Assembly: GCA_905233565.1 (NCBI GenBank)
Contig: CAJOCL010000010.1
Span: forward strand, 18,832 to 82,831
DNA from: an uncultured Synergistales bacterium
Lineage (GTDB): Bacteria > Synergistota > Synergistia > Synergistales > Aminobacteriaceae
Length of the DNA stretch: 64,000 nucleotides
Reading direction: 5' to 3'
The notes under the pieces are model-generated. The model worked only from the letters and a program-made list of their open reading frames with translations, ran no database searches and was not told where the DNA came from. The translations under genes were made by a program, and so were the position numbers. Positions 2,888 to 44,489 of the stretch are shown here, one piece after another; position 1 is the first letter of the stretch; each line of letters opens with the position of its first letter.

Positions 2888-4651
2888 TCATTCATTCCTT
2901 ACTGTAATTTTTATATATTTATTTTTCGTGTTTCTGATTAACATTTCAGGCTCAATTAACTTTCTTACTGTTTCGATTGAGTCAGTATTAACATAAATCG
3001 GCAGTTTATCATCTCCCGGATCCATTACAAAAATGCCTGCATTCATGAAAGTATCGAGCATATTTTCACGCGTTTTTTTGCTGCTGAATAAAATTTCAAT
3101 AATATAACCATAAGGAGGAAGCATAAATTCATATCTGTTTTTTAATTCGTCAGGTATAAATCTGCTCCAGCCTTGCGAAAGAAATTCGGCGATTTTCATT
3201 CCTGTTTTTCTTGACTGTATTAAAACTTTTCTTTCCGGGTTATTCTCTCTTCCTCGCCAGTATGATTCCATGAGCATATTGAAAACGTTGAATCTTGTTC
3301 CGTAATCCTGACTCCATAACTCAGCATCGAGATCAAGCCATGAAATTAAATTTACGTCAATTTTTCCGCAAAGTTCAAGCCCTCTTTGTGTCGACAAAAT
3401 TAAACCGTGAACGCTTGAACTTTTAACGCCTTCAGAATAAATATGAACGTCATTGTAATATTTCCCCGTTATTTTTGCGAGTGCATCAAGTCCAGGCCGT
3501 CTTCCCGTCAGAAAATCACAGCCGCATTTACTGCACTTTTCTGGAAGTCTGCAGATAAAGCCGCATTTACGGCATCGCAAAATATTGCCGTCATTTCTTG
3601 CCTGCATAATTCCGCCGCATTTTTGGCAGGTGATAATATTTCCGCATTTTTCACAGAAAATTTCTGACGCTTCGCCCTTCCTGTTGAGTATCCATATTAC
3701 ATTATGCCCTTTTGATAATTCCCTGTAAGTGTTTTTTATGAGCGAGTATGTAAGGGGAATATTTCCTTTTACGCCGTTAATCTCTTCTTTTTTCGTGCGC
3801 GAGTGATATATATCTGACAGGATAATATATTTTCGTTCGGGAATAATTATCTCTTTGGGATTTTTGCGCATATAAGTTTTAAGGGACGGCATTCTGCCGG
3901 CAGTTATAAATTCTGCATTGATAAATGATGCTCTGTGTCCTGCGAGGCTTCGGGCTGAAAGATTCAGGTTATAGGGCAGAATATAAGCCGGGTTTGCCTC
4001 ATCGTCAACAATAATTTTTTCAGGCATTAACGGTGCTGATATTCCGCCGGGAGGGGCGATAACTATACGGAATTTCTTTTCATGAATTAATTTCCATGAC
4101 TGCCATAATTTTTTGCTGTTGTCTGACGGCCATAACAACGCCTCAGATTTTAATTTATCAGGCAGATTCTTGAAAAATGATTTTGCCGTTTCCTTCTGAG
4201 GGAATAATATTAAAGTTCGTCCGGGCTTCTCAAGTTCTGAGATGAAAAATTTAACCCGTTCGCTGTCTAAAGGATGAAAGAAATTTTTTTCGTTAAATTT
4301 CCCGTTCACGCTGACGCTTATTTCAGGAGAATTAATAATCTTACCCATATAGAACGGGCGCGGTATAAAAGCCTTCAAAGCCTCAGCAGTTCCGCACATG
4401 CAGACTTTAGCGGCCCACAGGGACATATTCCAAATATCAGGGTCAATTAAACACTCATTGTCAATTATCCCCTCAACAGGCTTAATAATTATGTCCGATG
4501 ACAATTTTTTTTCTGAACGGCCTATAACAAAGCCTGTGTGCAGACTTCCTACAACTTCAACTATAACGCGGCTGCCCTCCTGAAGATTTATGCTGCTCTC
4601 ATAAGTCAGAGAGTTAAGCGACATTTCAGGGACTGCAACATCAATCAGCAA
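2888..4651 (-). CDS. priA: Primosomal protein N' (PriA)-like protein lacking a Walker A motif
   Basis: 587 aa. It has four CxxC pairs (CEKCGNIITCQKCGG...CRKCGFICRLPEKCSKCGC) as in the PriA Cys-rich zinc region, and a DExx-like IIVDDEANPAY. Synteny rpoZ-coaBC-priA is conserved. No GxxxxGK[ST] occurs anywhere in the protein (see findings). Confidence 0.7.
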   Translation of the reverse strand: MLIDVAVPEMSLNSLTYESSINLQEGSRVIVEVVGSLHTGFVIGRSEKKLSSDIIIKPVEGIIDNECLIDPDIWNMSLWAAKVCMCGTAEALKAFIPRPFYMGKIINSPEISVSVNGKFNEKNFFHPLDSERVKFFISELEKPGRTLILFPQKETAKSFFKNLPDKLKSEALLWPSDNSKKLWQSWKLIHEKKFRIVIAPPGGISAPLMPEKIIVDDEANPAYILPYNLNLSARSLAGHRASFINAEFITAGRMPSLKTYMRKNPKEIIIPERKYIILSDIYHSRTKKEEINGVKGNIPLTYSLIKNTYRELSKGHNVIWILNRKGEASEIFCEKCGNIITCQKCGGIMQARNDGNILRCRKCGFICRLPEKCSKCGCDFLTGRRPGLDALAKITGKYYNDVHIYSEGVKSSSVHGLILSTQRGLELCGKIDVNLISWLDLDAELWSQDYGTRFNVFNMLMESYWRGRENNPERKVLIQSRKTGMKIAEFLSQGWSRFIPDELKNRYEFMLPPYGYIIEILFSSKKTRENMLDTFMNAGIFVMDPGDDKLPIYVNTDSIETVRKLIEPEMLIRNTKNKYIKITVRNE

Positions 4652-41167: not shown

Positions 41168-42046
41168 CTACTTGCCTTCTTTTTCCTTCATGATTGTTTC
41201 GAGGGTCTGACGCATTACATCAAGCGGAACAGCCTTTCCGCCCGTCCATAACTGAATCTGCCTGAGTCCCTGATAAAGCGACATCCCAAGACCGTTAATC
41301 GTCGTGCAGCCTACTTCAGCGGCTTCTTTAAGGAAACGTGTAGTGGCCGGGTTGTAAGTTGCGTCAAAGCAGATGTGAGAGGGCTTCAGGAATTTCTTGT
41401 CAACGCATGTATATTCTTCTTTGCCCTTCATGCCGAGACCTGAGAGGTTGAGGATAATATCAGTCTCATCAAGAGCCTTTGCGATTCCTGCCTCGTCAGC
41501 TGCTCTTACGGGAACGCAGACACCGGGATAGAATTTGTTGATTTCCGCGCTGAGTGTCTCGCATTTTTCTGAACGTGAGGAGATGTAGATTTTCTTTGCG
41601 CCTTCCTCTGCAAGTTCAAGACATACGCTCCTGCCCGTACCGCCTGCACCGAATGAGAACATTACTTTTCCCTTGATTGTGCAGCCGTGTTCTTTGATGT
41701 CACGCAATGCGCCGTAACCGTCAGTGTTGTAGCCGACGAGCTTTCCGCCTTCGGTCTTTACGACAGTGTTTGAAGATCCGATTTTCTTGCAGAGGGGATC
41801 GAGGTCGTCAAGATACTGCATGACGGCTTCTTTGTTGGGCTTAGTTACCGCGCAGCCCAAGAATGTAGGCATGTAGCGGATACCGTCAATGATTTCCTTG
41901 AGGTGTGTGCTGTCTGCCTCGCAGTAGCAATAGACCATGTTGAAACCTGCTGCCTGATAAGCTGAGTTCTGCATTCTTGCCGCAAATGACTGGCTCAGCG
42001 GTGTACCGATGAGTGCAATGAGTCTGCTGTTAATATCAATCTGCAT
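41168..42046 (-). CDS. Shikimate/quinate 5-dehydrogenase (AroE/YdiB family)
   Basis: ORF track 41168..42067. ATG 42046 is preferred because AGGAG lies upstream. LIGTPLSQSFAARMQN, GCAVTKPNK, NTVV...GYNTDGYG and FGAGGTGRS match the family. Confidence 0.85.
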   Translation of the reverse strand: MQIDINSRLIALIGTPLSQSFAARMQNSAYQAAGFNMVYCYCEADSTHLKEIIDGIRYMPTFLGCAVTKPNKEAVMQYLDDLDPLCKKIGSSNTVVKTEGGKLVGYNTDGYGALRDIKEHGCTIKGKVMFSFGAGGTGRSVCLELAEEGAKKIYISSRSEKCETLSAEINKFYPGVCVPVRAADEAGIAKALDETDIILNLSGLGMKGKEEYTCVDKKFLKPSHICFDATYNPATTRFLKEAAEVGCTTINGLGMSLYQGLRQIQLWTGGKAVPLDVMRQTLETIMKEKEGK

Positions 42047-42171
42047 ACTATAAAACGCTCCTGACATATAAAATTTTAATGAAATACATTATTGAACGTG
42101 ATAATTTTATTCACATTGCCGTTATATTGCAAACATAATTTTACTGGTATTGCAGAGAAAAAATATACATA

Positions 42172-42200
42172 TTGATTTACTATAAATTTCGTGGCATAAT
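42172..42200 (+). promoter_or_regulatory. Sigma-70-like promoter candidate for the cysK leader
   Basis: TTGATT (42172-42177), a 17-nt spacer, then CATAAT (42195-42200). Confidence 0.5.
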
Positions 42201-42235
42201 TCACTTTAATAAAATTCTAACGAGGTGAAAACAGT

Positions 42236-42307
42236 ATGCGAGATTCAATAAAATTCAATGCCATTCATGAGGTCGTATGCTGTTGTTGCCGCTTCCCGGT
42301 CATCTGA
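42236..42307 (+). promoter_or_regulatory. 23-codon leader ORF with four consecutive Cys codons (candidate cysteine attenuation leader peptide)
   Basis: GAGGTGA lies at 42222-42228. ATG 42236 opens MRDSIKFNAIHEVVCCCCRFPVI-stop (tgc tgt tgt tgc). The ORF ends 112 nt upstream of the cysK ATG and is absent from the ORF track because of its size. Confidence 0.55.
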
Positions 42308-42419
42308 AACTTTCACTGTAAACTTTTACGCGCAATTTAATTTTACCGTTAAAGTCCCTGATTCTATTTCAGGCTGAATATTTGTTCATATACACAAGAA
42401 AAAAGGAGAGATTTATACT

Positions 42420-43352
42420 ATGTCAAAGATTTATACGTCAATTGACCAGTTAATCGGACACACACCGCTTCTTGAATTAACAAGGATTGAAAAGCATTTC
42501 GGGCTTAACGCGAAAATACTCGCTAAACTTGAATACTTCAACCCGGCCGGAAGCGTGAAAGACAGAATCGCAAAGGCAATGATTGACGATGCCGAATCAT
42601 CAGGAAAGTTAAAGCCCGGCAGCGTCATAATTGAACCGACAAGCGGAAATACAGGGATCGGGTTATGCTCAGTCGCAGCGTCAAGGGGCTACAGGGTAAT
42701 AATCGTTATGCCTGAGACAATGTCGGTTGAACGCCGTAAATTAATGAAGGCTTACGGTGCTGAACTTGTCCTGACTGAAGGTAAAAAAGGAATGAGGGGA
42801 GCAATCGAAAAAGCGTCAGAGATTGCAACAGAAATTCCAAAAAGTTTCATAGCCGGACAGTTCGTTAATCCTTCAAATCCTCAAATTCACAGGCTCACGA
42901 CGGGGCCGGAAATCTGGCAGGACACTGACGGAAAAGTTGACATTTTCATAGCAGGAGTCGGAACCGGCGGAACTTTGACGGGTACGGGCGAATATCTGCG
43001 ATCCGTAAAGCCTGATATAAAGATTATCGCCGTTGAACCTTCAGGGTCTCCCGTACTTTCTGCGGGACGTTCAGGAACACACAAAATTCAGGGAATCGGA
43101 GCGGGTTTCGTTCCTGATGTTCTGAACACGAGGATATATGACGAGGTTTTCACGGTTAATGATGATGACGCTATAGAAACGGGAAAATTAACGGGAAAAC
43201 TCGAAGGATTCTTAACAGGCATATCATCGGGAGCTGCGTTATATGCTGCGATCGAGACGGCAAAAAAAGCTGAAAATACCGGGAAAAATATAGCCGTAAT
43301 TCTTCCTGATACGGGTGAACGTTACCTTTCTACTGCACTTTTCACGGATTAG
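42420..43352 (+). CDS. cysK: Cysteine synthase A (O-acetylserine sulfhydrylase)
   Basis: 310 aa. IGHTPLLEL, FNPAGSVKDRIA (PLP Lys), EPTSGNTGIGL and GVGTGGTLTG match CysK. Confidence 0.9.
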   Translation: MSKIYTSIDQLIGHTPLLELTRIEKHFGLNAKILAKLEYFNPAGSVKDRIAKAMIDDAESSGKLKPGSVIIEPTSGNTGIGLCSVAASRGYRVIIVMPETMSVERRKLMKAYGAELVLTEGKKGMRGAIEKASEIATEIPKSFIAGQFVNPSNPQIHRLTTGPEIWQDTDGKVDIFIAGVGTGGTLTGTGEYLRSVKPDIKIIAVEPSGSPVLSAGRSGTHKIQGIGAGFVPDVLNTRIYDEVFTVNDDDAIETGKLTGKLEGFLTGISSGAALYAAIETAKKAENTGKNIAVILPDTGERYLSTALFTD

Positions 43353-43355
43353 GCC

Positions 43356-44066
43356 ATGAATATAGACGAGGCACTGAAAAAATCTGAAACAGAATTAACC
43401 GTTCTTAATACAGATAACGGAACTGATTACAACGGCCTGAGAGAGTGCGTTGAATGTGCATTCAGGAGCATTCAGGCCGCAATGTTCCCTTCACATGTGA
43501 ACCCTGAAAGAAAGAATATTGCTGAAAACCTGCGTATTGCGTCAGAAAAGTTACAGTCAGCAATTTCAAAAGAATCAACGACCATGTTAATATCAAAACT
43601 GCCTGCTATCAGACGGGTATTATGGACGGATATTACTGCGGCATATCGCGGAGACCCGGCAGCAAAAAATACAGATGAGATAATTCTTTCTTATCCTGCG
43701 TTTACGGCGATAAGTGCCTACAGGGTAGCTCATGAGCTTTATATTATGGGAGTGCCGTTAGTGCCGCGAATAATAACGGAATATGCACACAGCCTTACGG
43801 GTATAGATATTCATCCGGGCGCGTCAATAGGCGAATACTTTTTCATAGATCACGGCACCGGCGTGGTAATCGGCGAAACTTCAACGATAGGCAGCAGAGT
43901 GAAAATATACCAGAATGTTACGATAGGTGCAAAGAGTTTTGATGTTGCTGATGACGGTTCACTGGTCAAGGGGATTAAGAGACACCCTGACATCGGGAAT
44001 GACGTTGTAATTTACGCAGGTGCTACGATCTTGGGAGGCCAGACGGTTATTTTGTCCCTCCGGTGA
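43356..44066 (+). CDS. cysE: Serine O-acetyltransferase, possibly C-terminally truncated
   Basis: 236 aa. [43 protein letters not shown] and [19 protein letters not shown] are SAT left-handed beta-helix motifs. The ORF stops 11 residues after GATILGG. Confidence 0.75.
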
Positions 44067-44120: not shown

Positions 44121-44489
44121 CTATTTAGGCGGCAGGACTTCGAGCCAGTAACCGTCCGGGTCTTGGATAAAGTAAATTCCCATGTCGTGATTTTCAAAGC
44201 AGATGCAGCCCATTTCTGAGTGAAGTTTGTGGGCTGCCTCGAAATCATCAGCCTCAAAAGCCAGATGAAACTCTTCTTCGCCGATGTCGTATTTCTGAGG
44301 GTGTCCGGCAAGCCAAGTCAGTTCCAGCTCAAAATCTGCCTCATCGTTGCCGATGTAGACGATAATATATGAGCCGTCGGGGGCTTCTTTCCGCCTTTTT
44401 TCAGTGAGGCCGAGTGCCTTGTTGTAGAAGTCAAGCGAGCGGCTGATGTCCTGAACGTTATAATTCTCGTGGATCATCTTGAACTTCAT
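44121..44489 (-). CDS. Glyoxalase I / VOC-family protein
   Basis: The ORF track starts at 44561. ATG 44489 has AGGAGG upstream and gives MKFKMIHENYNVQDISRSLDFYNKALGL...HLAFE...YFIQDPDGYWLEVL, typical of lactoylglutathione lyase. Confidence 0.75.
   Translation of the reverse strand: MKFKMIHENYNVQDISRSLDFYNKALGLTEKRRKEAPDGSYIIVYIGNDEADFELELTWLAGHPQKYDIGEEEFHLAFEADDFEAAHKLHSEMGCICFENHDMGIYFIQDPDGYWLEVLPPK

Follow-up and report, generated by a model that had tools for sequence, protein, structure and literature searches.

The control of cysteine biosynthesis is usually ascribed to CysB, CymR, T-box or S-box systems. What, then, is the function of a short open reading frame (ORF) with four cysteine codons in a row, lying just upstream of the cysK and cysE-like genes of an uncultured Synergistales bacterium? 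This ORF was picked out in a sequence-only reading of 64,000 nucleotides (nt) of contig CAJOCL010000010.1 (hereafter the window, with positions counted from its first letter), which took it for a ribosome-mediated cysteine attenuator. The core of that idea is supported by related loci, in which both the ORF and its Cys run are conserved. In all relatives carrying the leader, the Cys codons are also predicted to pair with the leader's own ribosome-binding site, and this hairpin (H1) is the main conserved structure of the region, one that the sequence-only reading overlooked. No intrinsic terminator is present between the window leader and cysK. On balance, we favour a ribosome-mediated cysteine sensor that controls cysK-cysE and is built unlike the attenuators of the trp/his type.

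The leader ORF and its conservation in Synergistaceae

The promoter, Shine-Dalgarno (SD) sequence, start codon, 23-codon ORF, 112-nt gap and cysK-cysE pair described in the sequence-only reading were all found at the positions it had given. The features of the region are as follows (MFE, minimum free energy fold; bp, base pairs):

42172–42200, plus strand: promoter, with -35 box TTGATT (42172–42177), 17-nt spacer, TG at 42192–93 and -10 box CATAAT (42195–42200), from a consensus scan
42222–42228, plus strand: leader SD GAGGTGA, 7 nt 5′ of the ATG at 42236, read from the sequence
42222–42241, plus strand: predicted 5′ arm of H1, consisting of the SD bases GAGGUG (42222–27) and AACAGUAUGCGA (42230–41, start codon inside), in the MFE and centroid folds
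42236–42307, plus strand: leader ORF of 23 codons, MRDSIKFNAIHEVVCCCCRFPVI followed by a stop, with homologous 22–24-codon ORFs in 12 more distinct loci
42269–42272, plus strand: internal SD-like GAGG, 5 nt 5′ of the first Cys codon, (G/A)AGG being invariant in 13 leaders
42273–42295, plus strand: predicted 3′ arm of H1, consisting of UCGUAUGCUGUU (42273–84; Cys codons 1–2 and the first base of codon 3) and CGCUUC (42290–95), in the MFE fold
42278–42289, plus strand: four consecutive Cys codons, TGC TGT TGT TGC, the presumed sensor, with Cys runs kept in 13 leaders
42311–42316, plus strand: UUUCAC, 3 nt past the leader stop, fully complementary to GUGAAA, which is invariant in the leader ribosome-binding site, from 5-mer enrichment
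42341–42349, plus strand: U-rich/CCGU motif UUUUACCGU, just 5′ of H2, recurring as UUUUUCCGU or a near variant in most relatives
42357–42373, plus strand: hairpin H2, CCUGA-N7-UCAGG, 5–6 bp, seen by eye in 11 of 13 leaders with U-A to U.G changes
42403–42410, plus strand: cysK SD AAGGAGAG, with a CA-rich stretch just 5′ of it, from sequence and alignment
42420–43352, plus strand: cysK, O-acetylserine sulfhydrylase A (TIGR01139, 447.7 bits against a cut-off of 351; PF00291)
43356–44066, plus strand: cysE-like serine O-acetyltransferase with hexapeptide repeat, 4 nt past the cysK stop, best NCBIfam matches cysE/EpsC

The promoter is of the sigma-70 type, matching 9 of 12 consensus positions and having an extended -10 (TG-G-CATAAT); from its position, transcription would start near 42207. 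The ORF ends with TGA at 42305–07, and the cysK ATG follows at 42420. Its Cys run is the only intergenic run of at least three TGY codons in the 64-kb window, all others falling within the spans of long ORFs on either strand, and no further intergenic poly-Cys ORFs were found there as candidates for a regulon. The internal GAGG may hold or pause a ribosome on the Cys run.

Scanning a genome collection with CysK gave 80 loci, among which L001, L002 and L004 were the nearest from Synergistota. The metagenome scan with CysK returned nearly only Clostridial loci, and Synergistaceae relatives were reached by a protein search, which gave many Synergistaceae CysK of 82–91% identity, and by looking up ten of these by their exact sequence (L161–L175). 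The comparison rests on 13 distinct Synergistaceae leaders, those of the window and 12 others, a set limited to recovered cysK loci that carry the leader. At the equivalent position, L001, L002 and L004 carry MHNMRTLNAKFEAVCCCCPFTF, MLNHRTFKAIFEAVYCCCPFTF and MSIRFYSNIQAFHEAALCCCRFPF, respectively. All ten loci looked up by exact CysK sequence have a poly-Cys leader; that of L169 repeats the L002 leader, and the peptides of the remainder end as follows:

L161: ...KASCCCCSFGL
L163: ...KALYCCCPFKL
L164: ...EAVCCCRPLTL
L165: ...KAVHCCCPFTL
L167: ...EGFVCCCRFLF
L170: ...KALCCCCCLTF
L172: ...EASCCCCPSSL
L173: ...EVVCFCCRFCTL (the run is C-F-CC)
L174: ...EVLCCCCCLTF

Alignment of relatives had been set beforehand as the refuting test of the sequence-only reading, and it showed an in-frame, SD-led ORF of 22–24 codons with a Cys run in 13 of 13 distinct leaders. 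Twelve have three to five consecutive Cys codons (CCC, CCCC or CCCCC), the last of them three to five codons before the stop, while L173 has the interrupted run and a further Cys two codons before its stop. The Cys codons vary only between U and C at the third position, and AGGTGAA of the leader SD region is unchanged throughout. Elsewhere the leaders have diverged: mean column identity of their DNA is 46%, while the CysK proteins are 82–91% identical to that of the window, and the peptide outside the Cys run is poorly conserved. Since ORF and Cys run are conserved in the relatives, the leader ORF is a real, selected feature.

A hexapeptide-repeat gene comes next after cysK in every Synergistaceae locus with gene calls (L161–L175). 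Neighbours on the other side differ where examined, being aroE, divergently oriented, in the window, and LysE, Ysc84 or an aminotransferase elsewhere. The Synergistaceae poly-Cys leader was seen solely directly 5′ of cysK. Three more distant Synergistota loci (L003, L008 and L015) keep the promoter and are missing the leader ORF, so far as the recovered loci go, and the leader family appears confined to a Synergistaceae cysK clade. The Synergistaceae relatives, the leaderless three included, have kept the promoter block CATATTGATTTAGTG...TCGTGGCATAATT. This conservation beyond the hexamers hints at a transcription-factor site that may act in parallel with the leader. In the leaderless loci the block reads CATATTG...TATAATTC or TCGTGGCATAATT (L003, 2960–3000; L008, 2960–3000; L015, 2920–3000).

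Predicted pairing of the Cys codons with the leader's own ribosome-binding site

In H1, GAGGUG of the leader SD (42222–27) pairs with CGCUUC (42290–95), the two codons after the Cys run, and AACAGUAUGCGA, which contains the start codon, pairs with UCGUAUGCUGUU, which contains the first Cys codons. The predicted hairpin has about 20 bp with interruptions and is preceded by an A/U-rich, single-stranded 5′ tail. Folding of 42220–42298 gave -22.3 kcal/mol (z = -2.47, with 1 of 200 shuffles as good), and H1 was both the MFE and the centroid structure. It is the predicted MFE fold in 13 of 13 leaders, with z scores of -2.47, -1.53, -2.21, -2.66, -3.05, -2.71, -3.12, -1.78, -0.99, -2.93, -1.97, -1.92 and -2.10, and between 1 and 30 of 200 shuffles per leader folding as well as the real sequence. 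In 12 of the 13, H1 takes up over half of the bases of the Cys codons (L002 has 4 of 9).

The alignment gives further evidence for this pairing. RNAalifold finds the outer and middle helices, and on a model-guided alignment 83.7% of H1 cells are paired, compared to 39–64% when the partner strand is slid. The inner helix, formed by codons 2–4 and the codons before the Cys run, is variable, and cognate arms pair better than non-cognate ones (-9.5 vs -7.8 kcal/mol; permutation p = 0.003). H1 also accounts for the conservation of (P/R)-F residues after the Cys run, because the underlying CCUUUC and CGCUUC are anti-SD sequences in the hairpin. Where the peptide is conserved outside the Cys run, then, RNA pairing appears to be the explanation.

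Fold energies of the whole leader (z = -0.51) and of 42290–42425 (z = +0.79) are unexceptional. Rfam gave no credible match at E ≤ 10 in 41900–42600 and none at the leader of nine related loci at gathering score; in particular, no covariance-model match to a T-box, S-box (S-adenosylmethionine) or other curated cis-regulatory RNA was found at the window leader.

An out-of-frame AUG is present in seven of the 13 leaders (window, L001, L161, L164, L172, L173 and L174), 4–5 nt 3′ of the invariant internal GAGG (42269–42279 in the window), and would read the Cys run as Leu (MLLL...). It probably arises as a side effect of the near-palindromic pairing in which the true start region takes part.

A ribosome positioned on 42278–89 would be incompatible with H1, so that the state of the sensor would become an open or closed leader ribosome-binding site. 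In the mechanism we propose, the extended -10 promoter would give a leader transcript of about 215 nt, on which a ribosome would load at the strong SD GAGGUGA and translate the 23-codon ORF. With two flanking codons on each side, the Cys codons form the complement of the leader SD and start codon and would fold back on these as H1. When Cys-tRNA(Cys) is plentiful, the ribosome would run through the Cys codons and terminate, after which H1 would close and keep further ribosomes off the leader. When it is scarce, the ribosome would stall on the Cys run, block H1 and leave the purine-rich 5′ arm GAGGUGAAA free. Translation of the ORF, stalling at its Cys codons, the direction of regulation and every part of the read-out are inferred. 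The sensor step is proposed because of what is known of leader-peptide attenuation and because of mycobacterial experiments: ribosomes slow or stall on consecutive Cys codons once Cys-tRNA(Cys) becomes limiting. In our judgement the leader ORF is quite probably a translated Cys sensor acting on cysK-cysE.

The spacer and the read-out

How might the state of the leader reach cysK? The distance from the leader stop to the cysK SD is 83–116 nt in 11 of the 13 spacers (full range 66–149), and C exceeds G in every one. The window spacer (C 0.18, G 0.12) resembles the other intergenic regions of the window in composition. The most widely shared 5-mer of the 13 spacers is UUCAC, observed 18 times against 5.5 +/- 2.0 expected (3.3-fold; 0 of 1000 shuffles reach 18), and UUUCAC is observed 10 times against 2.4 expected. 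One or the other is found in the spacers of 12 of 13 leaders, although its place varies: just past the stop, ahead of H2 or close to the cysK SD. Such pyrimidine-rich elements, which occur around the stop codon and 3′ of it, have two possible partners, the cysK SD and the freed leader ribosome-binding site. In a modelled stalled-state ensemble of the window, the UUUUACCGU motif is predicted to pair with 42222–42238 at P ~0.75, a weak indication that this motif may bind the leader ribosome-binding site once a ribosome on the Cys run has freed it.

Two spacer structures had been described in the sequence-only reading. The 12/14-bp stem (42309–22 with 42342–55) does exist in the MFE fold of the window, but was not found in relatives. 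H2 is likewise in the window MFE fold and recurs widely in the other leaders; as an intrinsic terminator it was ruled out, since no U tract lies 3′ of it in 10 of 13 leaders, the window included. A U-rich stretch follows H2 only in L004, L167 and L173, which supply the weak hairpin-plus-U candidates of the set, and the absence of a canonical terminator, already remarked on from the window, holds for the relatives too. Alternative pairing between CTGAAA at the leader stop and TCAGG of H2 proved not to be general, as most relatives end the ORF in UAA or UAG. Alignment of the 13 leaders revealed no conserved antiterminator mutually exclusive with a terminator, and no conserved structure sequestering the cysK ribosome-binding site.

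In L174 (580–700), and also in L175, an insertion of about 100 nt lies between H2 and cysK. It carries a second copy of the cysK ribosome-binding site (CAAAAGGAAAG...ATG) and gives rise to a new ORF of 12 codons (MRSMACLYQHNV).

The read-out that we slightly favour, and hold tentatively, is a translational relay that would free the cysK ribosome-binding site. As in erm and Ms5788A (compared below), the freed 5′ arm would take up the pyrimidine-rich UUUCAC/UUCC sequences of the spacer, which in its absence would compete for the cysK SD, and cysK translation would rise. Modelling points the same way: a 30-nt ribosome footprint on the Cys run lowers the predicted opening cost of the cysK ribosome-binding site in 12 of 13 leaders (mean -0.72 kcal/mol), while footprints at the stop codon or at codon 5 have no such effect (means -0.06 and +0.09). 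When the footprint is slid along the ORF, the averaged profile has its minimum 0 to +12 nt from the first Cys codon. Per-nucleotide accessibility of the cysK SD under a sliding ribosome mask was inconsistent across relatives. An arrangement in the manner of Ms5788A, in which an anti-SD in or after the Cys run would occlude the cysK SD directly, was considered for Synergistaceae and rejected, the duplex energies being at shuffle level.

Several results weigh against the proposed sensor and its relay. Classical covariation was not detected in H1, the real alignment doing no better than shuffles either with the covariance model R1 or by pair counting. It could not be demonstrated because the paired columns are near-invariant and are also bound by the SD, the start codon and the identity of the Cys codons; R1 also failed to re-register the inner helix. 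The predicted relay effect is small (~0.7 kcal/mol) and goes in the wrong direction in L173. Duplexes between the Cys region and the cysK ribosome-binding site do not surpass shuffled ones (z from -2.3 to +1.5, with L173 alone falling below -1), nor is the complementarity between the leader ribosome-binding site and the spacer significant by duplex statistics. The L174/L175 insertion, placed before the cysK SD, would be hard to accommodate in a direct SD relay and favours a read-out at the level of the transcript.

With the same sensor, the read-out may instead be Rho-dependent termination in the spacer, as in tnaC, speFL and mgtL, an explanation that we regard as possible though rather doubtful. 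Once a ribosome has terminated normally on the leader, Rho would be able to load on the roughly 100 nt of untranslated spacer and stop RNA polymerase before cysK, while a ribosome stalled near the ORF end, together with the freed leader ribosome-binding site bound to UUUCAC, would hide the Rho loading site. This would suit the missing terminator, the length of most spacers and their excess of C over G, the placing of the Cys run always within three to five codons of the stop, and the L174 insertion, which it tolerates; by restricting the leader to a single, co-transcriptional round of translation, H1 would also suit a transcriptional decision. Rho has already been proposed for terminator-less actinobacterial cys leaders (PMC1262725). 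Yet the window spacer does not stand out in composition from its intergenic surroundings, a stalled ribosome would cover little RNA past the stop codon, and the sole Cys leader tested by experiment proved to be translational. Read-out through mRNA stability seems improbable, and we know of no amino-acid-sensing leader that works in this way. In a first variant, the cysK-cysE mRNA would be shielded from 5′-end-dependent decay by a ribosome that has stalled close to its 5′ end or by a 30S subunit on the unmasked strong SD (as in erm mRNA stabilisation and STAB-SD); in the second, closed H1 would be the target of a double-strand RNase whose cleavage starts decay. H1 does tie access to a very strong SD to the position of the ribosome, the tail ahead of it is single-stranded and A/U-rich, no conserved sequestration of the cysK ribosome-binding site was found, and spacer insertions such as that of L174 would be of no consequence. 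Against this, the case is purely inferential, and the conserved H2 and UUCAC elements are left unexplained.

Classical attenuation, the working picture of the sequence-only reading, would have the CCUGA hairpin and a U-rich tail act as a weak intrinsic terminator alternating with an antiterminator. Such a system would have its regulatory codons clustered towards the end of a short leader ORF, as is the case here, and H2 is conserved in 11 of 13 leaders, three of them with the U-rich stretch. But H2 has just 5–6 bp and in most leaders no U tract, the 12/14 stem was not found in relatives and does not overlap H2, and 42290–42425 folds no more stably than shuffles; comparison with relatives appears to have largely refuted this model, and we give it hardly any credence. 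It is also very unlikely that the ORF is no sensor at all, being either a functional Cys-rich micropeptide or an incidental frame within an H1 bound by a protein or ligand, with the promoter under control of the CymR/Rrf2 type. The promoter block conserved beyond its -35 and -10 hexamers, even in three leaderless relatives, would fit this, as would the lack of classical covariation in H1 and the Rrf2-family gene that follows cysK-cysE in a Clostridial relative. On the other hand, the peptide is poorly conserved outside its Cys run and RNA pairing explains the parts that are; frame, SD, start, stop and Cys run are kept in 13 of 13 leaders; the element is confined to the position directly 5′ of cysK; and Rfam gives no match. 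Control by a transcription factor at the promoter would in any case be compatible with a leader mechanism and come on top of it. The Clostridial locus is that of an Anaerovoracaceae bin (L005, 5060–5340), where the start region of the Rrf2-family (CymR/IscR-like) gene, AGAGGTGAACAGCATG, closely resembles that of the Synergistaceae leaders, which may be chance.

Returning to the cysteine sensor, the leader may be "self-gated", a proposal we put forward as speculative and one that would make it a class of amino-acid sensor not described before. The sensor codons would be the lid of their own ribosome-binding site, each transcript would be read once by a pioneer ribosome, and the outcome would reach cysK-cysE without a terminator, via Rho, mRNA decay or a relay through the repeated anti-ribosome-binding-site element UUUCAC.

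Known systems and a second leader family in Clostridia

Leaders with Cys codons were presented in the sequence-only reading as unusual, but they have precedents. In Actinobacteria, Cys-codon leader peptides without terminators were predicted in 2005 for Mycobacterium, P. acnes and B. longum, with Rho proposed as the agent (PMC1262725, Seliverstov et al.). In M. smegmatis, it was shown experimentally in 2020 that ribosomes stalled in a polycysteine small ORF free a downstream SD (10.1101/834739, Canestrari et al.), and the uORFC-8-2 motif was predicted in 2021 for cysS of Rhodobacterales (PMC8632094, Brewer et al.). Full-text literature searches found nothing on Cys-codon leaders for cysK of Synergistota or Clostridia.

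The window leader is like Ms5788A in being a short upstream ORF with a Cys run before genes of cysteine metabolism, in having no intrinsic terminator, and in that the Cys codons are paired in the resting RNA, which a stalled ribosome would remodel. Ms5788A is leaderless, however, whereas the window ORF is SD-led, with a 5′ untranslated region of about 29 nt from the presumed start and a -10 box 35 nt 5′ of the ATG. The Cys tract of Ms5788A pairs with the SD of the downstream gene and that of the window, by prediction, with the leader's own SD and start codon; the two are from different phyla, the window's being Synergistota, and have no detectable sequence relationship. The actinobacterial cys/cbs leaders share a Cys run near the stop and the lack of a conserved terminator hairpin, but they are predictions for which no hairpin like H1 has been described, while the window family has H1 and belongs to a Synergistaceae cysK clade. 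In uORFC-8-2, tandem Cys codons likewise lie inside a conserved stem and were read as ribosome-mediated attenuation. The Rhodobacterales motif contains two Cys codons, ends in a run of U that would fit an intrinsic terminator, and has a tRNA synthetase gene (cysS) as its target; the window family has three to five Cys codons, no terminator, the leader ribosome-binding site as stem partner, and cysK-cysE as target.

Further likenesses are of principle. In ermC and cat a stalled leader ribosome breaks a helix, and refolding exposes a downstream ribosome-binding site with no need of a terminator. Stalling there depends on a drug and the nascent peptide, in contrast to the shortage of charged tRNA proposed here, and the four-segment pairing of erm is well defined whereas the third and fourth segments in the window are weakly supported. 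E. coli trp shares tandem regulatory codons in a short leader ORF, but has a G+C-rich terminator with a U tract and an exclusive antiterminator, neither of which is present in the window. The trpL ribosome-binding site is reportedly masked by a downstream complementary segment that limits repeated translation, a finding credited to Das et al. in 1983. Leaders such as tnaC, speFL and mgtL have an ORF, stalling near its end and no intrinsic terminator, and masking of a Rho site would fit the anatomy of the window; tnaC and speFL sense a free ligand via the nascent peptide, whereas codon supply is proposed for the window. The window element shares the principle of the known Cys-codon leaders but lacks defining features of each of those families, so that we class it as working like a ribosome-mediated Cys attenuator while belonging to no described family.

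A different leader is found 5′ of cysK in 64 distinct loci, mostly of gut and rumen Clostridia (Oscillospiraceae, Faecalibacterium, Lawsonibacter and others). These are spread among L005–L160, examples being L077 (about 2890–3003), L006, L021, L032 and L033. In order, they have a TTGACA-17-TATAAT promoter, a conserved 5′ hairpin holding the leader SD, the ORF, a CA-rich spacer, and CRACAUC just 5′ of the cysK AGGAGG. The ORF has 6–31 codons (median 14) and contains a nucleotide-invariant CGA-UGU-YG (R-C); of the residues, 12% are Cys and 20% Arg, and 28 peptides contain just one Cys. The codon preceding CGA gives CCUCC or CUUCC, so that this anti-SD together with GAUGUYG is complementary to CRACAUC ... 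GGAGG. Across the 64 loci the duplex has a mean z of -1.13, falls below -2 in 33% of loci and covers the cysK SD in 86%, and ACAU occurs near the SD in 36 of 64 loci against 17.5 +/- 3.6 expected. Y/R covariation in the GAUGUYG:CRACAUC helix was not significant (p = 0.09), and the family has no Rfam match. Its layout appears to follow the logic of Ms5788A, with a Cys codon inside the sequestor of an SD, and supports the view that Cys codons 5′ of cysK genes of this lineage have a function. The invariant CGA, a rare-type Arg codon, may sensitise decoding of the Cys codon that follows.

The literature searched contained no description of a design in which sensor codons pair with the ribosome-binding site of their own leader. 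To our knowledge, ribosome-mediated Cys sensing has been demonstrated in mycobacteria only. If the present reading is correct, two architecturally distinct forms, one in Synergistaceae and one in rumen and gut Clostridia, would extend it to new phyla, and ribosome-based cysteine sensing would be widespread in anaerobic gut bacteria and overlooked so far. The two leaders are candidate Rfam-type families for annotating cysK regulons in metagenomes, and that of the window is a compact test case, open to reporter fusions, for a leader ORF acting without a terminator.

The CysK of Synergistota (window 42420–43352) is 75–79% identical to that of Oscillospiraceae and other Clostridia (L005–L080), and similar cysK genes occur in bins labelled Bacteroides, Fibrobacter, Spirochaetia and Desulfovibrionaceae. 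This distribution suggests transfer of the cysK-cysE unit across phyla, or else binning errors. One Oscillospiraceae locus (L014) has a T-box leader (RF00230, 117.8 bits) at 37–277 on the minus strand; it lies about 2.7 kb 5′ of the cysK leader, on the opposite strand, and is unrelated to it.

The cysE-like gene of the window scores 144 and 137 bits against CysE and EpsC, respectively, under both NCBIfam cut-offs. The N-terminal ~90 residues of its product match nothing, and the homologues beside cysK in relatives are 253–273 residues long. About 310 nt past cysE, the plus strand at 44378–44400 (CGGGGGCTTCTTTCCG CCTTTTT) holds a hairpin with a run of T that resembles a terminator, and the cysK-cysE transcript may end here.

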